A stretch of 64,000 nt of DNA from a virus (lineage: Duplodnaviria; Caudoviricetes), in IMG/VR virus record IMGVR_UViG_3300031993_000017, one strand, 5' to 3'. This document shows positions 597 to 56,543 of this stretch, piece by piece. How positions within the stretch are numbered: the first letter of the stretch is position 1; each line of letters begins with the position of its first letter. Under the pieces are notes generated by a model. The model did not search any database. It was not told the origin of the DNA and worked only from the letters and a program-made list of their open reading frames with translations. The position numbers and the translations under genes are program-made.

Positions 597-1859
597 TCAT
601 TGCGAAAGCCTTATTCTTAAAGGCGTAATGACTTCGCCTCTACACTGTTCCAAATGTTGTATTTGGTTCAGCTTACTTTTTCTCATTATATTGAGAGCTC
701 CGTTGACATCTGCGTTTAGTACTTGACCATTCGATCTTTGATAGAGACCGCGATAAATTCTTTTTCCTGTGAAGCTACCTTGATGCGGGTTTTGTGGATT
801 CCAAATTGGTATCTTGTCACTGTCGAAAAAGCTTGCCTTTGAAGTGTAACTTTCTTCTTGTTCAATGTAGTTAATACCGAATCGATTACACAAGAATTTC
901 AATCGATTTTTGAATTTGCCGTAAGGAATCATGACGAAGTTTTGATTATTGACTTTACCTAGATTAGGATTTTCTTGAAATCCATCATTGAACCCTACTA
1001 CAATGTTTCCTATCTTATGTGTTAGGCAATAGTCAACAATGTACTTTGCAGAACAATAGACAAAATCTTGGATGCGACGATTTCGCTTTTCAGTAGTTGC
1101 AGACATTCGAGATGTATCACATTTAATCCCTTGCTTGGCTTTCACGCTTGATAGTCTGGCACGCTGTTTGTTGTACCATTGGTTTTGTGATTTTAATTTT
1201 CTACCGTCAATTATGAATGCTTCTCCAGTTGAGGTTGCACAAGTTGCAAAATTATTGATACCAAGATCGATACTCAAAGCTTTATTCAGATCAAGATCTT
1301 GAATCTCGTCATACTCTACGTCGAACAAATATCTTGCTTCAAACCACTTGCCACCTTGCCTAGGAACAATGTGAATTTGATGAACTTTCTTATCTCTAAG
1401 TTGAGGTGGAAAATGCAACTTGATTCTTGTGTCAGTTTGTTTCTTCATTAAAGGCGACATCGGAATAATCATTGTACCATCTTCCTTCATAAATGATTCC
1501 GGAAGGTGTATAGGATACAATCCATCTTTCGGCAAGTAATAGGGCATATTGACTGCATCTTTTGAATACTGCTTCTTTTGAACTAGTTTAAGCAATGCGA
1601 AAAATGAACGAAAAGCTGCATCAACGCATTTCATAGTTTGTTGAGCGATGTTAGCTCCGAGCAACTTATAATTCTCACTCGTTTTTTCAATCGGGTAGGT
1701 GGCTTCATATCGTAAGAAAGACCCTTCACTGAAGTAGTGCTGACGAATGTTGTACAGAGATTCGTTATACACATTTTTGCTTAGACGACACATTTCTTTC
1801 AACAGCATATACTCATCTTTGGATAAGTGTTTTAAGTTTTGTTTCCAAGTTACTAGCAT
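597..1859 (-). CDS. tnpB: TnpB RNA-guided endonuclease (IS200/IS605 family), no adjacent tnpA
   Basis: LCRLSKNVYN-type N-terminus, RuvC-I SIDLGINN, QEESYTSKASF, RuvC-III NADVNGALNI; SD GGAGGTG. Confidence 0.93.
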   Translation of the reverse strand: MLVTWKQNLKHLSKDEYMLLKEMCRLSKNVYNESLYNIRQHYFSEGSFLRYEATYPIEKTSENYKLLGANIAQQTMKCVDAAFRSFFALLKLVQKKQYSKDAVNMPYYLPKDGLYPIHLPESFMKEDGTMIIPMSPLMKKQTDTRIKLHFPPQLRDKKVHQIHIVPRQGGKWFEARYLFDVEYDEIQDLDLNKALSIDLGINNFATCATSTGEAFIIDGRKLKSQNQWYNKQRARLSSVKAKQGIKCDTSRMSATTEKRNRRIQDFVYCSAKYIVDYCLTHKIGNIVVGFNDGFQENPNLGKVNNQNFVMIPYGKFKNRLKFLCNRFGINYIEQEESYTSKASFFDSDKIPIWNPQNPHQGSFTGKRIYRGLYQRSNGQVLNADVNGALNIMRKSKLNQIQHLEQCRGEVITPLRIRLSQ

Positions 1860-1963
1860 GTTTTCACCTCCTTTCTTTTGCTGTTCATATTAAAGGTTAG
1901 GAATTACAATCAAATCGGCTGAATTGATTGTAAAATTAAATTTTAATAGAATTTCAATATAGT

Positions 1964-11278: not shown

Positions 11279-11758
11279 TTATTCACTCTCTTCATCGTAA
11301 TGAGTCCATTCGTACCTTTTTCTGTTCTTTGCCCGGTGTACTAACTCTCGGTACTCTGTATCAAATTTCTTTTCTAACTTGGCAATCATATCATACAACT
11401 CTAGTACCGCTTCCACACGGTCTTTGTTATACTCAGCATTTTCTCCAACAGATTCCAAATACTGATCTAATTCTCTTTTTGATCTCTCAGCCCCGTAAAG
11501 ACACGGCAGGTTAAATCGAACAACCTCATCGCATAAACTTTCTATGCGATTCCATGAATTGATTTTAGCACCATTCCTTATAAGGCAGATTCCATTCGGG
11601 TAACAATGTTCACGATAGAGATATACACCACATAACACATCATCGAAAACATAGTTTCCTACATCATCATTGTAATCTTCCTGATGCCACTCTCTTAGGT
11701 CTGCGATCAATTCAAATTCATCTAAAATTTCATCTGTCAGTCGGATTCGGCTATTGTA
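11279..11758 (-). pseudogene. Coding fragment whose 5' end is cut by the IS right end
   Basis: Frame of ORF 11279-11710 stays open up to the TCAA right end at 11759; no SD/ATG of its own. Confidence 0.55.
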
Positions 11759-11808
11759 TTGACCTACCCATCGGCTGAAGCCAATGGGATTCGCAAGAAG
11801 TTTGATAT

Positions 11809-13074
11809 CTAAGATAGCCTTATTCTTGCAGGGCTGGTCAAAAGCCCATTACACAGTTTGTCGAAATCGACATTCTGCTTACATTTTCTTAGAATGTTTG
11901 CGGCACCATTTACATCTGCATTGAGGATTGTGCCATTTTTAGATTGGTATAGTCCTCTTTTTATGCGTTTGCCAGAAAATGTGCCCTCATAAGGCTGTTC
12001 TGATTTATATTCTGGAAGTGCATCTCTGTCTAAGAAGCTGCTTTTAGAAGTGTAACTTTCTTCTTGTTCGATGTAATCAATCTGATACTTCCAACAGAGG
12101 AATTCAAGCTGTTGACGAAGGTCACCTAAAGGTATCTGAACAAAGTTCTGATTGTTAATCTTGCCGAGATTAGAGCACCTTTTGAAATCCGCATTATATC
12201 CTACAATGAGTGTACCAATGTTGTTCTTGATACAATAGTTGATTATATATCTTGCTGACTTCTTGATAATGTCATTGACTTGATTGTTTCGCTTTGTTGT
12301 AATATTCTGGATACGCTTTGTTGTCTTCAACTTCTGTTTCATAGAAATAGAACGGAGTCTTGCTAATTCTTTATTCCACTGATGGTTGATTGATTTGAGT
12401 TTACGACCGTCCATAATGAACGGTGTCCCAACAGTTGAAACACAGGTAGCAAGATTATCCACCCCTAAATCTATTGACAGAATGTTGTTCTTGTCAACAT
12501 ACACATCTTCCTGTTCAACTTCATACACATACTGTATCTTAAAGTAACGACCATTGTTAAAAGGCAAGATGCGAACTTCTTTGATAGTCTTATCAGCTAA
12601 TCGTTCAGGAAACGCAATCTTGATTTCCTTGACATCGGGGTGTAAAGCTCTAAAGTTCCTACTCATCGGGACATACAGGTAGCCATTCTTAACTACAAAA
12701 GCATTTGTAGACATTATAAGATTAAACATTCCACCTTTAGGTCTATAATGCGGAACATTGACATCATGGTATCTGTAATCGCTAGTTTTGCATTTCTTCA
12801 AAAGATTAAAAAATGATTTAAAACTTCTATCTACAACTTTCATAATCTGCTGTGATATTCCAGCTTGTAAAAGTCCATAGTTTTCATTTGTCTTACATTC
12901 GTGATAGTTGCTCTCATAAGTCAGAAATTGCTTTGTATTGAAGTAGTGTTGACGGATAGTGTAGAGTGCAACATTGTACAGATTATTTGAATATCTGCAC
13001 ATTTCACGAAGTAGGTCATATTGACATTTAGTTAATCCTCTGATTACATTACTCTGTACACAGTATGTAGACAT
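11809..13074 (-). CDS. tnpB: TnpB RNA-guided endonuclease
   Basis: SIDLGVDN, EESYTSKSSFLD, NADVNGAANI; omega-RNA scaffold overlaps the 3' end. Confidence 0.95.
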   Translation of the reverse strand: MSTYCVQSNVIRGLTKCQYDLLREMCRYSNNLYNVALYTIRQHYFNTKQFLTYESNYHECKTNENYGLLQAGISQQIMKVVDRSFKSFFNLLKKCKTSDYRYHDVNVPHYRPKGGMFNLIMSTNAFVVKNGYLYVPMSRNFRALHPDVKEIKIAFPERLADKTIKEVRILPFNNGRYFKIQYVYEVEQEDVYVDKNNILSIDLGVDNLATCVSTVGTPFIMDGRKLKSINHQWNKELARLRSISMKQKLKTTKRIQNITTKRNNQVNDIIKKSARYIINYCIKNNIGTLIVGYNADFKRCSNLGKINNQNFVQIPLGDLRQQLEFLCWKYQIDYIEQEESYTSKSSFLDRDALPEYKSEQPYEGTFSGKRIKRGLYQSKNGTILNADVNGAANILRKCKQNVDFDKLCNGLLTSPARIRLS

Positions 13075-13203
13075 TTCTATCTCACCTCCTTCTGATTGTA
13101 TTTGTTATTAGTTACTATATCTTTATTATATAGCAAATCGTTATGATAGTCAACCATTTTTAATTCATTGACCTTATATGAAGATTAAAGGAGGTCTGAA
13201 TAT

Positions 13204-13620
13204 ATGATACATAACGATTACAAGCATGGAAATAGAAATAAGTCCTTACTAAGATATCATCTTATATTTGTATGTAAATATAGAAAACATTTGCTTACGC
13301 ACAACAATATCATTGGCGATGTCAAACGCTTATCAACAGAAATATCGGAAAAGCATGATGTTAAAATTAAATACATGGAAGTTGACAAGGATCATATTCA
13401 TTACATGATAGAAACAGCCCCAAATATTAACTTATCAGACTTCGTGAGAGTCTTAAAACAGTATACTTCGTATCATCTTTGGCAAAAATATACTGCATAT
13501 TTGTCAAAAGTATTCTGGCATGAAAGAACATTCTGGTCTGACGGATATTTTATTGCAACTATCGGAGAGGTTAGCGCCGAAACACTAAAACACTATATTG
13601 AGAATCAAGGTAAGAAATAG
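13204..13620 (+). CDS. tnpA: IS200-family Y1 (HUH) transposase
   Basis: YHLIFVCKYR, DHIH (HUH), FWSDGYF, HYIENQ catalytic Tyr. Confidence 0.96.
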   Translation: MIHNDYKHGNRNKSLLRYHLIFVCKYRKHLLTHNNIIGDVKRLSTEISEKHDVKIKYMEVDKDHIHYMIETAPNINLSDFVRVLKQYTSYHLWQKYTAYLSKVFWHERTFWSDGYFIATIGEVSAETLKHYIENQGKK

Positions 13621-13663
13621 CCTCCACTTAAAGTAAAGGCAGGCGTAGCATTCATCTAAGAAG

Positions 13664-14349
13664 CTAAAGCTTCTTGATTTTCTGCAAAAGATTGTAATAG
13701 GCGTCACGCTCTTCTTCATCTTTAAACTTCAAGAAATCATAAAATCCGGATCGTAATTCTCTCGGAAGAAACTTTTTCATTTGAAATAACTGATTTGATT
13801 TTTTCAATTCTTCAAATTGTTCCAATGCCTTATCAATTTCATTTTTCGCAACAGTCCGTGAATAACCGGCACTAATCATTGCATTGAATGCAGTGTTATA
13901 ATCGAACTTCACATCACGATAGAGTTTTTAATCAACTCAAAGTAAATCAGATTGTGCGAGATGTTTTCCAACAGGTATGTATGGACTCTACTTACCAACG
14001 AGTGCGGTTTACTCTGAGTGCATACAATTGCAGAAAACTTGTTAATGTCTGTATATGTACCTATATTCAGAACACCAAGTTCAACAAAATCATCCCACAG
14101 TTTTGATTCCGCCATAGTCGGATTTTTCAGATGATCTCGAAATCGTTGTTTTTGAGTTTTATCAGTGCAATCATCATTGTAACTATATGAGTAAATATAC
14201 TGAACTCCATTGTCTACGAATGATCCGTCAGACTGCCTATTCAGAAGGATAATATCACGATGAGTATTATCCTTCTTTGTGTTTATTCTCAAATCATTGT
14301 GTTCATCAATAAACACACCTGCATGAATATAGGACTTTTTGATCTTCAT
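13664..14349 (-). pseudogene. Frameshifted gene abutting the IS left end (MKIKKSYIHAG leader)
   Basis: ORFs 13909-14349 and 13664-13912 join via a frameshift near 13920 (FELIK..|YRDVKFDY, compare FQLVKSIPTDIYF in the 1-442 paralog). Confidence 0.5.
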
Positions 14350-29753: not shown

Positions 29754-32117
29754 TTAAATACTGATCGAATTGAGATCAACCGATGCAGGTAATGCAATAA
29801 GATCAATAAAGATATCGTTCACGATACCGTGTACGGTGATGTAAACCTTACCTATTACAGTGTTGGCGTTCACACTATCAAGTCCGTTGATATCTGCTCT
29901 CATTACAACTCTGTAATCATCGATCGCACCTACATTCCGCATAGTATCAAGCAGAGGTGTTACACCTGCGTAGAACTTGCTGTATGCTTGTTCGTTGTTG
30001 TACTGGAATGTGATAGAGATTCCTACTCTGTAGCAAACATCTTTGATTGCGTCTACAAGGAATCTTGTGGAAAGATTCTCAAGTGCATTGTAGGTTGCAG
30101 GTGGAATATCCCAACCCGTGTAATTTCCCCAAAGGTTTGTTCCGAGATCCGGAATATTTGTAATAGCGTTTACATTTACACCTTCACCTGACTGCCATTC
30201 ATCGAGGTACTTCTTAGGAACGATGTAGTCAAGTTTTCCAATGGCAACATTGTGCTTTCTGTTAGTAGGAAGTGCCCAGGAGTACTGAATACTCTGATTT
30301 GCCATCTGTGACCGTTCGATCATCAGCTTGAGGAAAGAAGGCGGTGCGATACTAGAACGACTTGTTCCAGCATATACGAAATGTCCCCAAGGTGCGAAGT
30401 AAGCACTATGAGTAGCGAATAATGGTTCGGTATTCTTATAATCTGTGGAAAGTTTAGTAAAGTATTTTTGTGCGTCACTACGCTTTAATGTTCTAGGAAC
30501 ATCGATCAGACCTGCTGCACATCTACTATAATAGGAAACAAACATAATTGCTTTGTGCATAGGTGAAAGGCTGATATTCTGCCAAGTTACAGGTGCCCAA
30601 GACTCTGCATCAATTACATCACCGAACCAAGTGAAGTCTTGATCATCCCAAGGGCTGATGATTCTATCAGGATTATAGGTAAGTCTATCAGTCAGAAGAT
30701 AAAGAATACCATCTTCCCAATCATTGACATTAGCAGAAGCATTGTCTGTAGGCTTACCGGTTGTATTTGTATAAAGCCATTCACGATAATAGAATCCGTC
30801 TGCATCAACCTTATCAACACCTGCATCCTTTACAGCTTTAAGACCCTTGATGTAAATTGTTTCCTCACCGAATCTTGCTTGAGCAAGTGCAAGTGCCTTA
30901 GTCATCGCATCATCTGCAGATTCCGTAAATCCATGATCGTCACCACCGGTAAGAGATACTTCAAATGTATCTTCTGCTTCATCGAAGTTTCCGAACAGTT
31001 CGATATCTACAAACTTAGATGTTACTTCATCAATGTAAAGGATTGTATCAGTAGTTGCAAGTTCATCCATGGTGAACACAAGGTTCTCTACAGCTGTCAG
31101 AGCTCCTGTGGAATCTTTGATATAAGTAATCATGTTCCAATACTTGTAATTTCCATAAGTTACTCTTGCGAGTTTGATAACTAAGGAATCACCAAAGGAG
31201 CCAGGATACTTAGCTTTAAACAGAACTCTGTTATCTACTTGCTCAGGATCTGCAACTGAAACTACTTCTGTCCAGTTACTAGGATCAAATGCATTAGTCC
31301 ATTCACCTTGCCATTCACTTGCATCCCAACGTCTACCAAGTTCCCAATCAGATTGATTAAATGCACCAGGAGTTTCAACAGCATTAACACAATTGTAAAT
31401 GTTTCCATCATATCTAACAAGATCACCTACAGCATAAGTGGATTGATCACTAAATGCATCCGGTTCTGCCATATTAGAAGAACATACCTTATACTGCCCG
31501 TCATATACACAAGCATCGCCTTCAGAATAGATTGTTTGATTACTGAACGGATCTGCTGTAGGATTGTCAACTTTTGCTTTGTAAATCAATCCATTGTAAT
31601 TTACATAAGCACCAGTTGTATACTGAGCATGTTCAGAAAAATCATTGATAGAAATATTTGCATCAATGTGTTCATTTGCCTGTACTAACTGTCCATTGGT
31701 AGCTGGATAGTAAAAATCATCACCAGCTTCATATGACTTTGTGTTGTCATAATTCTCTGCACAGAAAATATTACCTTCTGACTTAGTTCCGGGGCAAAGT
31801 CTGCACACAAGAACATCATATCCTGCAGTAAGAAGTGTGATAGCAGTCTGATAGGAGTAATCTCCATACAAGCGATAGTTAGTAGCAGGTCCACGATAGG
31901 TAGAGATAAATGCTTCAAGTCCTGCCTGGTTTGCAGGAAACTTCGCCCATGTTGTTTCGTCCAAGATTTCATCTTTGGATTTCTTACCAACAGCTTCATA
32001 ATCAAAATAACCAGGTCCCCAAGCTGCGGTAATCGGAAGTGCCACTGTGGCATATGAGTTAGCGCCAATGTTATAAGTATAATTCGAGCTAACTTCATTG
32101 ATCACGATTTGTGCCAT
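29754..32117 (-). CDS. Contractile tail sheath protein with inserted carbohydrate-binding-like repeats
   Basis: AWGP, AKYPGSFGDSL, SLTGGDD, VNAI...WGNYT, STRFL, GAIDDYRVV sheath motifs. Confidence 0.85.
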   Translation of the reverse strand: MAQIVINEVSSNYTYNIGANSYATVALPITAAWGPGYFDYEAVGKKSKDEILDETTWAKFPANQAGLEAFISTYRGPATNYRLYGDYSYQTAITLLTAGYDVLVCRLCPGTKSEGNIFCAENYDNTKSYEAGDDFYYPATNGQLVQANEHIDANISINDFSEHAQYTTGAYVNYNGLIYKAKVDNPTADPFSNQTIYSEGDACVYDGQYKVCSSNMAEPDAFSDQSTYAVGDLVRYDGNIYNCVNAVETPGAFNQSDWELGRRWDASEWQGEWTNAFDPSNWTEVVSVADPEQVDNRVLFKAKYPGSFGDSLVIKLARVTYGNYKYWNMITYIKDSTGALTAVENLVFTMDELATTDTILYIDEVTSKFVDIELFGNFDEAEDTFEVSLTGGDDHGFTESADDAMTKALALAQARFGEETIYIKGLKAVKDAGVDKVDADGFYYREWLYTNTTGKPTDNASANVNDWEDGILYLLTDRLTYNPDRIISPWDDQDFTWFGDVIDAESWAPVTWQNISLSPMHKAIMFVSYYSRCAAGLIDVPRTLKRSDAQKYFTKLSTDYKNTEPLFATHSAYFAPWGHFVYAGTSRSSIAPPSFLKLMIERSQMANQSIQYSWALPTNRKHNVAIGKLDYIVPKKYLDEWQSGEGVNVNAITNIPDLGTNLWGNYTGWDIPPATYNALENLSTRFLVDAIKDVCYRVGISITFQYNNEQAYSKFYAGVTPLLDTMRNVGAIDDYRVVMRADINGLDSVNANTVIGKVYITVHGIVNDIFIDLIALPASVDLNSISI

Positions 32118-32119
32118 GT

Positions 32120-32386
32120 TTAATCCTCCTTCAATGTTGTTGATTTCTTTGTATATTTTCTTGTAGGTTTTGACTTATCTTCCCGAACAGGTTTTGTAAT
32201 ATCAGTTTTTCCTTCAGTAGTTACAACAGTTTTGATTTCCTGTTGTTCAGGTACTTCCACAGGATCACTAACACGAGCAAATTTCGTGTTATTGATGTAC
32301 CCGGAAACTGATTTTACTTCACCCGGAAGAAAAGTTACGCCATAGAAGGTTTTTACGGCTTTTGATAAGTTTTTGTAAGTAGGCAT
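32120..32386 (-). CDS. Small hypothetical protein upstream of sheath
   Basis: 88-aa ORF, SD GAAAGGGG. Confidence 0.7.
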   Translation of the reverse strand: MPTYKNLSKAVKTFYGVTFLPGEVKSVSGYINNTKFARVSDPVEVPEQQEIKTVVTTEGKTDITKPVREDKSKPTRKYTKKSTTLKED

Positions 32387-32420
32387 TGTTTTCTTGCCCC
32401 TTTCTTTCTTATTCTACATC

Positions 32421-32720
32421 TTGACGATCCTATCAACGGAAGTTAATAGGATTTCGTGAGAAGTTTGTCCGAAGACCTTATTCTCACAGGCATCGCCAAG
32501 ATGCTCTTACGCAGTTGCCAATTTTGGCGGCTTCTGCTTACATTTTCCTTGTTTAATGGGCAATTGTTCCCCCAAAATCATTACGCCCTGTTCTCGTCCT
32601 GTTGCCTCAATGTTTGAGGTTCGTGTTCCTGCTACAGCCGGCGACCAGCAATCTAGATTGATGGATTTTTGTAATCATCTAAGAAGCAGAAGTTTTCTAG
32701 GTTTCTACTCCCTTTCCATC
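32421..32720 (-). ncRNA. Stand-alone TnpB omega-RNA scaffold / non-autonomous IS200/IS605 derivative
   Basis: Colinear with the 3' end of the 11809 tnpB (16-nt identity GAAAATGTAAGCAGAA, four stems with compensatory changes, terminal hairpin plus TCAA) with no intact tnpB ORF. Confidence 0.75.
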
Positions 32721-32836
32721 ATAAAAGGTTTACTTTATTTTAATATCTAAATCATATTAAACTCCATTTAATTAGATTAAAATATTGTCTTAGATTTTAA
32801 TGCTATCACCAAATTATAAAAATGTAAATGAGATAC

Positions 32837-32865
32837 TTGATTTTCATTTACAATTATGCTATAAT
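32837..32865 (+). promoter_or_regulatory. Sigma-A promoter of tnpB, -35 box enclosed in an inverted repeat
   Basis: TTGATT-17bp-TATAAT with extended TG; TGTAAATGA/TCATTTACA arms flank the -35. Confidence 0.7.
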
Positions 32866-32879
32866 ATATTTGAAAGGAG

Positions 32880-34157
32880 GTGGGTCATATGAAATTATCA
32901 ACATGGAAATGTAGTTTGAAACATCTTACAGCGAAACAGTATGAATATCTTAGAGAAATGTGTCATCTTAGTAAGAATGTGTATAATGAATCTGTATATA
33001 ACATTCGGCAACAGTATTTCCAAGAAGGTTCATATCTTCGATACGAAGCGAATTTCAGTATAATGAAGTTTTCTGAAAATTACATCAATTTAGGTTCAAA
33101 TGTTTCTCAGGCTACAATGAGATGTGCAGATCAATCTTTCAAATCATTCTTCGCTCTTTTGAAGAAAGTAAAAGACGGTGTCTATGAAAATTGGAAAGTA
33201 AAACTTCCACATTACTTAGATAAGGATGGAGTCTATCCAGTTACGTTCATACATGCTGGTGAATCTAATTATTCTAGTGGAAAATTCAAAATCCCAATGT
33301 CTAAGTATCTTAGAGACAAGTACAATGGAATGAAATTTTATATCGATGTTCCAGAATATGTTCGTGACAAGAAAATACATACAATATCAATCGTACCAAA
33401 GTACCATGGAAAATATTTTGAAGCAAGATTTGTATTTGAAGAAAATGATGTTACCGAATCACATATTGATTATAATTCTGCATTGAGTATTGATCTTGGA
33501 GTAAATAATTTTTGTACCTGTGCAACTTCCACCGGAGAATCTTTTATCATTGACGGAAAAAGAATAAAGTCTATCAATCAATGGTACAACAAAGAAAATG
33601 CCAGACTGTCAAGCATAAAAGATTTGCAAGGAATCAAAGGTTGCACAAAAAGACAATATTTATTAGCCAGAAAACGAGAACGTAGAATTGATGATTTGAT
33701 TTATAAGTCTGCAAAGTACATAGTTAATTATTGTATTGAACATCAGATTGGTAATATTGTTGTAGGTTACAATGATGGTTTCCAAGATCGAGTTAATCTC
33801 GGTAAAGTAAATAATCAAAAGTTTGCAATGCTACCATATGGAAAGTTGAAGTCAAGGATTCAATATCTTTGCACAAAATATGGAATAAACTATGTGGAAC
33901 AGGAAGAATCTTATACATCTAAGGCGAGTTTCTTAGATCGTGATGAAATTCCGAAATGGAATCCATTGAACCCAAAGCAAGGGGAGTTCACAGGTAAAAG
34001 GATATATCGTGGACTGTATCAAACAAAAGATGGCATTCTGATAAATGCAGATGTGAATGGAGCGTTAAACATACTAAGAAAAAGTAGCGTTGTGAGTTTA
34101 GAGACTCTATACAGTAGCGGCGTTGTCCTTACGCCTACAAGAGTTAGAATCCTGTAA
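32880..34157 (+). CDS. tnpB: TnpB RNA-guided endonuclease, no tnpA, no canonical right end
   Basis: SIDLGVNN, EESYTSKASFLD, NADVNGALNI; closest to the 597-1859 copy. Confidence 0.93.
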   Translation: MGHMKLSTWKCSLKHLTAKQYEYLREMCHLSKNVYNESVYNIRQQYFQEGSYLRYEANFSIMKFSENYINLGSNVSQATMRCADQSFKSFFALLKKVKDGVYENWKVKLPHYLDKDGVYPVTFIHAGESNYSSGKFKIPMSKYLRDKYNGMKFYIDVPEYVRDKKIHTISIVPKYHGKYFEARFVFEENDVTESHIDYNSALSIDLGVNNFCTCATSTGESFIIDGKRIKSINQWYNKENARLSSIKDLQGIKGCTKRQYLLARKRERRIDDLIYKSAKYIVNYCIEHQIGNIVVGYNDGFQDRVNLGKVNNQKFAMLPYGKLKSRIQYLCTKYGINYVEQEESYTSKASFLDRDEIPKWNPLNPKQGEFTGKRIYRGLYQTKDGILINADVNGALNILRKSSVVSLETLYSSGVVLTPTRVRIL

Positions 34158-34253
34158 CAAGGAGTTTAGCGACTTAAAATCCAACTCTTCATAAAAAGAT
34201 TCATATAAATTTAAGAGTTTACTTTATTATTCTTAAATTAAATTATATGAATC

Positions 34254-34853
34254 TTATAGGATATCCGGATCAACAGCAATCCGTTTTAATTTTTTCTCTA
34301 CGTAAGAAATTAAAACGGTACCGTCACAGACCAACGGAATGGAAGCCTGGTATAATTTACCGCCTTTATTATAGGCGTTTGTAGTAGAACTATAATCAAT
34401 ATCAGTTCCTGGTTTGATTTGTACTCCAAATCTTGTTTTCCTTGGTACTTCATAAGGAAGTGTAACATCAATGAAATACATAGAGCTATATTTGAAAAGT
34501 AGTTCTCTAACAATTTCATCTAGATCTGCCATTCTTGTAGCTAAAGCTGTAATAGTGTAATTCAAATCAATGGGAATTACTCTTTCATTATAGAAATTAT
34601 TAGTTTCATTATCAAACCCAGCTGAAACTCCAGAATGTAATCTGGTGAAGTTCATGCGATCTTGTGCAATATGCAAATTAGTGTCTCTGAAAAGTGCTAC
34701 AATTGGAAAACTAACTTCATCATTCTGAATTTGTGCAGCCAAATCAATTACACTTTCAGGATCAATTACCCGGACTACAGGGTTAGGGACTCTTTCCGGA
34801 TTAAAGGAATCTAATAAATCTTCTGTTAGTGCGTTATCATAGATGTAAATCAT
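34254..34853 (-). CDS. Probable tail completion / terminator protein
   Basis: FPIVAL.R...IPIDLNYTI pattern and position between neck and sheath genes. Confidence 0.55.
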   Translation of the reverse strand: MIYIYDNALTEDLLDSFNPERVPNPVVRVIDPESVIDLAAQIQNDEVSFPIVALFRDTNLHIAQDRMNFTRLHSGVSAGFDNETNNFYNERVIPIDLNYTITALATRMADLDEIVRELLFKYSSMYFIDVTLPYEVPRKTRFGVQIKPGTDIDYSSTTNAYNKGGKLYQASIPLVCDGTVLISYVEKKLKRIAVDPDIL

Positions 34854-54275: not shown

Positions 54276-56543
54276 TTACATTTCCTTTCTAGAATTTTTA
54301 ATTGAATAAGCCATCATCCTCCCGTAGAGAGTTTCGTTCTCTATCATATCTAGAAACTCTTCCCGAAGTATACGTCTTTTAACGATGTAGTCTTCGATGT
54401 TTTGTGTATACATCTCTGACACAACACCGTTTATTCCATGTGCAGGATCTCCCTTAGGTTTGCTACCATCAGGTTCATTGTAAACAGGTAACAAGTACTC
54501 CATTTCTCTAAGATGGTACTGAATCCATTTTATTTCTTCTGGATCAGTTGTATCAACCGACTTAGGTTTTGGATACTTACAAGGAAACTCTTCTCCATAC
54601 CAACGAAGTGTAGTAGTTACATCACACTTAGATGGGAACGGCAAGAAGTTAGCAGCTTCGCACATTATACTAGAAAGAAGTCTTCCACCTTCTTCCCAAG
54701 CCTCCATTGGAACTTCGGCTAATAACTCATCGTGGACGGGAATGAGTAATCTTCCGCATATCTTCTTCCAATCGGGGCTATTTTCTAGCATTATCATAGC
54801 AAGTTTTGTTTGGTCGGCCGCACTCTATATTACTATATCTTTCAAAATAGTACAGACTATATCTTCTGAATATGTTAAAACATTCAGTTCACCATTTCAA
54901 CTGGTAACTCATCTTCCAGCTTACTCCTCAACAACGAGGATAGTCGTTACACTTTAATTTCTACTTTAGTCCAAGCATGTAATGTAGAAATTCTTAGCAC
55001 GGTATCACCTGCTATCCATTTCTGGACCGTAGGCTCTCTTAGTCAGCTGCTTCGTCATTTGAAATATGTATATCGCTTTAGCTTAGATACATTGTCTTAT
55101 TCTGCTGATACCGTTAGCACTGCAATTATGCAGCACACCTATGAGTAATGTAGTTAGATGAATAAGGGCAGTGCAGCGGTCTACCCTGTATCATAGAATT
55201 CAGTGTCTGACGAGATCCGTCTTGAATCTTACTACGATTGTTAGTAACTCGTATGTGCTCATTCTCGTACAATTCTTTTATTCTAGGAGCCATCTGCCCC
55301 ATGTACTTGTACTGTTTGAATTCTTTGCACAATTCATCTTTTATTCTCTGCGGAATATCCGAAGATTCTTTTAAAGTAGAAGGATCTAAAGGATCTACAT
55401 CCGGATTAACGTATCCTTTCATTGCAGAAAATTCAAACTCGGGTAACTGCATCTCAGGAATATGTCTACGCCTCCCAAGTATTGTTTCAACATATCCATA
55501 CTTTCGTGCAAACGCCTGTGCAGATTTCATAAGTGCTAAGATTCCAGGAAATGCTTTCAGAACAGAATCATATACTTTCTGAGCAGATTTCAATTTCTCC
55601 TCTTTTGTCATATCGTCGCGTTTGCCATACAACTGATCTGCAATAGACGGAATAGCACGACCATAGGTTATCAAATATGGTAAAATTTAGACTATATCAT
55701 TACCGTGTTGTTCAACGGTACTTTGCGCTTCCGATGGTAACTCATCTTCCACCGTACAATTAGTCGTTAGACCTTATCAAGAATATTCTCGATCTTGGCA
55801 CAGGATTTGCATCAGCATTCCCTGTTAGCAGATTGATAAAGTGATCATTTCCTATCACACCAATTAAGTTCAATCCACACCCATGAGTAATATGGTTCAC
55901 AAAGTTTTCATTCTACACTACAAGAGAACAACTTGTGTAGACGGGGCATAACCTTTTTAGTTTACCCAATAGTATTGTTTTTGCTTCTCCTCGACGCTTC
56001 TTACCGTCAGGTTGGTACTCACCTGTTTCTGGATGAAACTCCAAACATTTTTCATATGGAACATTGAATGATAAACTTGCAATTCCTGCGTAAATGTCCC
56101 TTCCGTCTTGGAAGGTCTTTATCATTCCTTTATCACCGCTTATAAAAGCAGTTAATCTTGGTTCTTGTGCCTTGAACCTGTATTATGAATGTTCGCTACA
56201 CATTCTCTCCGATCACTCGGAGTATCGGACTATATCTTAACACTGAAATTCTGTTACCAAATTTGCAGTGTTCCCTACGTTTCCACTTCGCTTGAAGCGT
56301 ACTCTACTCGCTTGGTTATCTCAATTGACCTAGCACTACAGCTATTTATACATTTCTGTAAATGTCAATTTCTAGCATTCGATAGTCTCTACGGTTGTAA
56401 ATTATACAACCTCGGTATCGCCTTATTGTCGGTAAGGTTTCACCGATTTATAGGGTTTTACTACAGCACACAATTCTACTGTAGTCAGAAGACAACATTA
56501 CATAGGCCGGGGTCTGTATCTGTATCTTCCAATCGCTTGACAA
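54276..56543 (-). CDS. polA: Family A DNA polymerase, C-terminal part (exons 56543-56478, 56170-55964, 55671-55183, 54824-54276; about 436 aa)
   Basis: Splicing restores DYS|AQEPRL (motif A), AKTILLG|ITYG (motif B), IQG|SAAD; VHDEL (motif C); TTG start after SD GGAGGTG. Confidence 0.82.
54825..55182 (-). mobile_element. Group I intron 4 of polA (no ORF)
   Basis: 5' exon ends in U within P1 (GGGU/GCCC), terminal G, AAGAUAUAGUC element, in-frame junction IQG|SAAD. Confidence 0.88.
55672..55963 (-). mobile_element. Group I intron 3 of polA (no ORF)
   Basis: P1 GGGU/GCCC, CGACUA and AUGAUAUAGUC elements, terminal G, junction LLG|ITYG. Confidence 0.88.
56171..56477 (-). mobile_element. Group I intron 2 of polA (no ORF)
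   Basis: P1 CUACAGU/GCUGUAG, GAGACUA and AAGAUAUAGUCC elements, terminal G, junction DYS|AQEPR. Confidence 0.88.

Follow-up and report, generated by a model that had tools for sequence, protein, structure and literature searches.

The closest described relatives of the element reported here are the PATEs of Geobacillus stearothermophilus (Meers et al. 2023, PMC10055086), which are gene-less, have ends related to those of a resident autonomous element, insert 3' of a short target motif without duplicating it, carry an omega-RNA scaffold that abuts the right end, and need TnpA and TnpB in trans. A 300-nt piece of DNA (the piece) within a 64,000-nt stretch of tailed-phage genome (IMG/VR record IMGVR_UViG_3300031993_000017; the whole stretch is called the window) resembles them in its anatomy and manner of insertion, and would likewise depend on TnpA and TnpB in trans. 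It is unlike them in residing in a large tailed phage, in that the full copies of its family lie in a 5' untranslated region (UTR) behind a promoter-like motif ending in the target, and in that the left-end hairpin of the phage family varies, with three variants. Autonomous elements of the IS605/IS608 type, such as the one at 11759-13696 of the window, share with the piece a right-end hairpin followed by TCAA, a left hairpin, the omega-RNA fold and a TTAT-like target; unlike them, the piece has lost both genes. Divergent from the piece lies the gene tnpB2. Like the tnpA-less IS1341-type elements, it consists of a single tnpB that has its own promoter and conserved ends and whose 3' part is overlapped by a scaffold, with the differences that its right end is a long AT-rich hairpin plus GGAT, not a GC-rich hairpin plus TCAA, and that its protein has no CxxC. 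An RNA-guided protein adjoining a non-coding RNA near a promoter also recalls domesticated TnpB derivatives, the TldR RNA-guided transcription factors; in contrast to those, this locus has conserved RuvC residues and retains its transposon ends, and no target gene is associated with it in a conserved way.

A reading made from the letters of the window without database searches (the sequence-only reading) had joined the piece and tnpB2 into one domesticated system. We conclude instead that the locus probably holds two unrelated selfish insertions in one phage intergenic region: a gene-less PATE, whose RNA is of the class of tnpB1, the nuclease gene of a resident IS605-type element termed IS605(1), and a tnpB2 element. 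There is no sign of domestication at the tnpB2/piece locus, which represents selfish DNA of a known kind rather than a new system of two genes. Positions of the window features, including its three tnpB genes, are collected in Table 1.

The piece has no tnpB ORF (open reading frame). Its coding content is limited to two short antisense ORFs of 53 and 64 amino acids (aa), a tblastn search with TnpA and TnpB gave no match in it, and the remnant of a tnpB 3' coding end is about 30 nt long, degenerate and still recognisable. Its last ~130 nt align with the 3'/right end of tnpB1, with a 16-nt identity, GAAAATGTAAGCAGAA, and both RNAs are predicted to adopt the same four-stem fold (z -4.1 for the piece and -3.8 for tnpB1; none of 200 shuffles was as stable). 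When the two were aligned with five further relatives, compensatory changes were found in 16 of 32 consensus pairs. A covariance model built from seven tnpB1-type 3' ends only, with the piece left out (R1), matches the piece end to end at 32421-32548 with 87.1 bits (E 3e-20) and IS605(1) at 11759-11889 with 154 bits; the R1 scan did not detect the 3' end of tnpB2 at E <= 1. The counterpart model from tnpB2-type 3' regions (R2) gives 181.7 bits on tnpB2's own 3' end and 25.2 bits on the piece. Together, these data support the assignment of the piece to the protein-free RNAs of the omega-RNA type, tnpB1 class. The sequence-only reading had already seen the missing ORF, the 16-nt identity and four shared stems whose sequence has changed with pairing kept; all of this held up, also under the covariance modelling that it had suggested as a check. 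A long-range helix of the PATE, GACGAG with TCGTC, was also predicted, but it has no counterpart in tnpB1-type elements and was set aside.

The ends of the piece point to the same parentage. Its terminal GTCAA is shared with the tnpB1-type elements of the window and of L025, L027, L038, L040 and L046, which end in GGGTA(C/G)GTCAA; in L024, L035 and L047, which are more distant, the end is GGGGAGTGTCAA. This makes 32421 an exact right boundary, because the sequence diverges immediately after the terminus in every tnpB1-type element compared, and the right-end hairpin itself shows compensatory changes among PATE copies. The left-end hairpin with the following ATGA(A)T resembles the left ends of IS605(1), which reads CAAGAAGC-TTTA-GCTTCTTAG plus ATGAATG, of L046/L038 and of L065. 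We note that the first four bases of the left end of the piece, GATG (32717-32720), are also the first bases of its right flank (32417-32420), which makes the junction ambiguous by 4 nt; similarly, the first six bases of the IS605(1) left end, TACAAT (13691-13696), equal the start of its right flank (11753-11758) if the target is CTAT. No such repeat is seen in the PATE copies from other phages.

The piece begins right behind the promoter-like motif AACCTTTTAT, and its removal leaves 34 nt to the ATG at 32386, as the sequence-only reading had it. The uninterrupted form of the site that it expected in related phages is present in the closest relatives, L001/L002 (L001:9340-9400), which read AACCTTTTAT / GATATAGAA...GGGGCAAAAACTTATGCCTACTTAC, the window counterpart being AACCTTTTAT / (300 nt) / GATGTAGAAT...ATGCCTACTTAC; the empty site consists of the target-adjacent motif (TAM) plus the flank. 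Read over a longer distance, the junction is TAAACCTTTTAT / GATATAGAAAAGGTTAAGAAAAGAAAGGGGCAAAAACTTATGCCTACTTAC in L001/L002 versus AAACCTTTTAT / (300 nt) / GATGTAGAATAAGAAAGAAAGGGGCAAGAAAACAATGCCTACTTAC in the window. Judged from these alignments, the 300 nt are a clean, precise insertion after TTTAT without target duplication. A relaxed form of the promoter-like motif, ACCTTWWAW, has 12 occurrences on the minus strand, where the genes are encoded, and a single one on the plus strand, in several cases ~20-45 nt before a ribosome-binding site (RBS) and start codon, and its position ahead of the homologues of p88, the 88-aa gene next downstream, is kept in L001, L003, L004, L007, L009 and L010, although these homologues are only 40-60% identical. 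The sole plus-strand copy (13171) directly precedes tnpA.

By the established TnpB mechanism, the flank GATGTAGAATAAGAAAGAAA behind the right end would serve as guide. Against the L001 empty site, the only one seen, this putative guide is mismatched at position 4 and from position 10 onward, and its action would be on sibling genomes from the same lineage and not on L001/L002-type relatives; the suggestion of a weapon against such relatives is not supported by this comparison. That the guide matches the empty donor allele and that the carrier is immune, both stressed in the sequence-only reading, are true statements, but they are nothing special to this locus, being inherent to every IS200/IS605 insertion with a TnpB (Meers et al. 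2023, PMC10055086).

Further members of the family were found by pattern scans and BLAST. The piece belongs to a PATE family of ~290 nt whose copies, at other sites, are 86-88% identical. Full copies are inserted after AACCTTAATTAT in L061/L059, after AACCTTTTAT in L062, and, in G001, a complete phage genome of 200 kb, after CTTAT at a distance of 17 nt from TAACCTTAAATAT (L065; L063 shows part of this copy); L052/L060 hold a partial copy without left end in a tRNA cluster. In all four full copies, the window's included, TTAT precedes the left end at 0-17 nt behind a promoter-like motif and an RBS follows the right end, with the ATG start visible in the window, L061/L059 and L065. The copies in L052/L060, L059/L061, L062 and L065 have neither tnpA nor tnpB in their loci. 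Mean pairwise identity is 61% in the left-end tip (piece positions 1-45), 86% in the rest of the left end (46-110), 93% in the upstream half of the scaffold (111-172) and 86% in the part homologous to the tnpB1 3' end (173-300). Selection on the PATE RNA fits this profile, because the best conserved part, 111-172, is not needed by TnpA. The tip takes the form of three alternative hairpins in the same frame of the family alignment, and the window version resembles that of the resident IS605 (GCTTCTTAGATGA). The scaffold copy without left end and isolated right-end hairpins of the tnpB1 type (L052 3208-3391 and 4426-4459, minus; G002:C1:7303-7391) are in or near the tRNA cluster of another phage, on a 34-kb fragment without tnpB. 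L056-L058 also matched the right-end hairpin pattern, but proved unrelated.

The 3' scaffold of tnpB2 has the same stem plan as the tnpB1 type, followed by a long AT-rich hairpin and (A/T)(A/C)GGAT, and in an alignment of tnpB2-type 3' regions (A8) 22 of 44 pairs are compensatory and the terminal GGAT is present in 5 of 5 sequences. At the other end, a perfect, covarying hairpin of 9-10 bp stands just upstream of the promoter in six elements (window tnpB2, L011-L014 and tnpB3). The promoter behind it is sigma-70-like in the window, L011 and L012, and is the phage motif AACCTTWAAT in L013, L014 and tnpB3, so that tnpB2-type elements appear, from these alignments, to exchange promoters. Homology by blastn extends over 32820-34209 with L011 and 32814-34262 with L012, which lie in gene contexts different from that of the window, L011 among unrelated small genes. 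No piece was found within 3 kb of the tnpB2 relatives L011-L014, where R1 matches only at their own 3' ends. On this evidence tnpB2 brings its own guide RNA and ends, and thus is a separate element and not an end-less one; the sequence-only reading was right that the ends are not of the hairpin-TCAA type and mistaken in calling the gene end-less, since the left hairpin, the promoter, the 3' scaffold and the hairpin plus GGAT terminus recur in L011-L014, whose sites are unrelated to this one. An alternative element boundary of 32739-34262 (after TTTAT, or flanked by a 12-nt repeat) was dropped, the homology with L011/L012 starting at 32814-32820.

The protein TnpB2 is 46% identical to TnpB1, ~59% to TnpB3 and 94% (aa) to the L011 homologue. 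Its RuvC motifs look intact, as had been claimed, the candidate residues D205, E342/E343 and D391 being invariant in 14 homologues, and its promoter-like TTGATT-17-TATAAT is likewise present, scoring 10/12 with an extended -10 in a promoter scan. A phmmer search of the PDB with TnpB2 gave no match; the 14-sequence TnpB profile reaches the TnpB structures 8bf8/8h1j weakly (E 0.004). No CxxC...CxxC zinc finger was found in the TNB region, residues 340-400 of TnpB1 and TnpB2 containing no cysteine, and the homologue alignment has no invariant Cys pair there. The TNB Pfam model still fits this clade despite the cysteine-free region (window 33897-34079 in tnpB2). Behind the right end, the flank is ATCCGGATCAACAGC..., which runs antisense to the final part of p199, the 199-aa gene upstream. 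A terminator-like hairpin with a T-run lies at 34266-34283 (plus), 4 nt past the right end and in this antisense stretch, and could stop the tnpB2 guide transcript after ~25 nt. An exact 12-nt repeat, GTTTACTTTATT, is found at 32728-32739, in the native spacer beside the promoter motif, and at 34217-34228, in the loop of the tnpB2 right hairpin; the corresponding loops of L011 and L012 differ from it.

In the reading that we favor, a gene-less derivative of a tnpB1-type IS200/IS605 element, with a hairpin-bearing left end, a scaffold of ~190 nt and a right end of hairpin plus GTCAA, would have entered as single-stranded DNA just 3' of the TTAT that forms the tail of AACCTTTTAT. Transcription from this motif, the presumed promoter, would run in the sense direction through scaffold, 5' UTR, p88 and tail-sheath genes. 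A Y1 TnpA would move the piece in trans and a tnpB1-type TnpB would load its RNA in trans; in the window phage the helpers would be TnpA and TnpB1 of the IS605 at 11.8-13.7 kb, ~20 kb away, which are the likeliest partners as judged from RNA class and end similarity. The loaded TnpB would cut TTTAT+GATGTAGAAT... in sibling genomes that are without the insert or have lost it, and recombination after the cut would copy the element back. The tnpB2 element (~32818-34262, plus) would be an independent insertion that remodelled the last codons of the 199-aa gene. The two would be adjacent because a densely coding phage offers few tolerated, TTAT-rich intergenic targets, and PATE copies would come to lie repeatedly between promoter and RBS because the phage promoter motif ends in TTAT, the target, which in turn means that phage transcription would supply the RNA in the sense direction.

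It is tempting to see the adjacency as a partnership, with TnpB2 and the 300-nt RNA forming a domesticated two-gene unit that would home to, or be a weapon against, related phages through their uninterrupted promoter. The piece and the tnpB2 element are only 98 nt apart (32720 to ~32818) and divergent, TnpB2 seems catalytically intact with a promoter of its own, the four-stem plan is common to both scaffold types, and G001 carries the PATE with only tnpB2-type nucleases. Nevertheless, we regard such a unit as very improbable: the tnpB1-type model gives the piece 87 bits and the tnpB2-type model 25 bits, tnpB2 retains the complete scaffold and ends that the unit was supposed to have lost, and the guide is mismatched to the sole empty site seen. 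Nor do the RNA and the gene keep company, as relatives of tnpB2 (L011-L014) occur without a nearby piece and relatives of the piece (L052, L059-L062) without a nearby tnpB, and distances of 22 and 143 kb separate them in G001. A structured 5' UTR co-opted to regulate late expression of p88 and the sheath gene could account for the sense orientation of all four full copies between a promoter-like motif and an RBS; however, this placement is explained by TTAT being at once the target site and the last part of the promoter motif, different copies have different genes downstream, and the same operon lacks the element in most relatives, so that we give this idea hardly any credence.

An inert, harmless remnant deserves somewhat more weight, although we still hold it unlikely. 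In that case the RNA would be unused, and its structure kept by recent common descent and by the need of TnpA for the ends. The copies have diverged by only 12-14%, the left-end hairpin of the window copy is imperfect, G001 has no cognate tnpA or tnpB1, and the L052/L060 copy is without a left end, all of which a relic would accommodate. What it leaves unexplained is that the positions dispensable for TnpA, 111-172, are the best conserved (93% vs 61% for the left-end tip), that stem pairing is kept through compensatory changes, and that every full copy, at different sites, keeps the full architecture. A bolder proposal, which we put forward as speculative and rather doubtful, is that the PATE family is specialised for phage promoters (AACCTTWTAT ends in TTAT), that its insertions are promoter-driven guide-RNA leaders, and that several TnpBs, possibly including tnpB2-type ones, use stand-alone RNAs for homing or exclusion among co-infecting phages.

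Several observations weigh against two independent insertions with a tnpB1-type helper. G001 has its PATE alongside only tnpB2-type tnpB genes and an unrelated IS605, the piece copy being 22 and 143 kb from its two tnpB genes; because of this coexistence, the PATE need not have a tnpB1-type partner in cis, and tnpB2-type proteins may use its RNA or co-infecting genomes may provide helpers. The left-end hairpin of the window copy has two mismatches versus a perfect stem in L065, and this copy may have lost mobility. The left boundary of the tnpB2 element, and with it the TAM, is placed only within a few nt. An exact scan of IMG/VR found no empty allele matching the guide, and an exact flank scan of JGI metagenomes found none either, results that are of little information as the phage's own lineage is absent from both. 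The IS605 of G001 (L066, G001:C1:108300-110100) is a distinct one, with a tnpA 31% identical to the window TnpA; behind it, and oriented alike, lies a distant tnpB, which went undetected by the clade profile.

With two independent insertions as the favored account, the locus shows, to the base, how an IS200/IS605 mini-element that carries only a guide RNA is built in a large phage, with an autonomous element of the parent type 20 kb off and sister copies elsewhere. It backs the view, already published, of TnpA, TnpB and omega RNA as modules able to act in trans, and it explains the recurrence of such elements behind phage promoters, as the target motif belongs to the promoter. It also corrects the misreading of adjacency as partnership and offers a tractable test case for RNA-guided homing between co-infecting phages.

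Table 1. Features of the window discussed in the text, with positions counted from its first letter.
Feature	Position	Strand	Remarks
Piece: PATE-like, ORF-less IS200/IS605 mini-element	32421..32720	minus	300 nt
PATE left-end hairpin CTAGAAAAC-TTCT-GCTTCTTAG, then ATGATTAC	32679..32700	minus	imperfect
Omega-RNA-type scaffold of the piece	32421..32610	minus	piece positions 111-300; last 128 nt fit the tnpB1-type model
Right-end hairpin CCTATTAAC-TTCC-GTTGATAGG, then ATCGTCAA	32429..32450	minus	element terminus 32421
Promoter-like motif AACCTTTTAT	32721..32730	minus	terminal TTTAT/TTAT (32721-32725) is the insertion target (TAM)
Flank 3' of right end, GATGTAGAATAAGAAAGAAA	32401..32420	minus	putative guide and 5' UTR of next gene
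tnpB2 element	32818..34262	plus	tnpA-less; left boundary within a few nt
tnpB2 left-end hairpin TGTAAATGA...TCATTTACA	32823..32865	plus	overlaps promoter TTGATT-17-TATAAT
tnpB2 coding sequence	32880..34157	plus	425 aa; Pfam OrfB_IS605 1.7e-25, Cas12f1-like TNB 1.8e-8
tnpB2 omega-RNA-type scaffold and right end	34079..34262	plus	AT-rich hairpin ~34197-34255, then ATAGGAT
IS605(1), autonomous IS605-type element	11759..13696	minus	right end 11759; left boundary uncertain
tnpB1	11809-13074	minus	Pfam OrfB_IS605 9e-25
Y1 tnpA	13204-13620	plus	full-length, divergent from tnpB1; Pfam Y1_Tnp 1.4e-33
tnpB3	606..1868	minus	third tnpB; tblastn; 58.6% identical to TnpB2
p88, 88-aa gene	32120..32386	minus	first gene 3' of the PATE, followed by p787
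p787, tail-sheath-like gene	29754-32117	minus	PHROG 23 tail sheath, 3.4e-9
ACCTTWWAW motif	45796, 45375, 37957, 11260, 11171, 2245, 1897	minus	
ACCTTWWAW motif	13171	plus	

The presumed helper element, IS605(1), seems to interrupt a phage ORF (11700-11758 / 13697-13760, minus), whose N-terminal part ends in ...DEEERDAY and whose C-terminal part, YNSRIRLTDEILDEFEL..., continues in frame into a 143-aa ORF at 11279-11710. The left boundary and TAM of IS605(1) are uncertain because the search of IMG/VR returned no unsplit homologue of this ORF. For the 3' end of tnpB3, R1 gives 55 bits and R2 gives 62 bits. Directly upstream of the gene, the phage promoter-like motif is present as TAACCTTTAAT (about 1897), together with a left-end hairpin that covaries.

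The host of these elements is a large tailed phage with a T4-like portal (Pfam) and a tail-sheath-like gene (PHROG 23). Megablast and blastn searches of GenBank phages with the locus and with the piece gave no match and hence no close DNA relative; related contigs are present in IMG/VR. The gene order p199-p88-p787 is kept in L003-L007 and L009-L010, and L008 keeps p199 and p787 with no match to p88. In L003-L007, L009 and L010 the 199-aa gene and the 88-aa gene are spaced by ~35-105 nt, and the sheath gene follows. In L001 (4064-9348), as in L002, the 199-aa gene is lengthened to 346 aa, and ORFs of 410 and 982 aa precede the p88 promoter; this spacer between the 199-aa gene and p88 is a hot spot for insertions. 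Elsewhere in the window, six tRNA genes lie at 19.4-22.7 kb, and the minus strand has a group I intron at 56206-56498 (Rfam RF00028, 50.2 bits).

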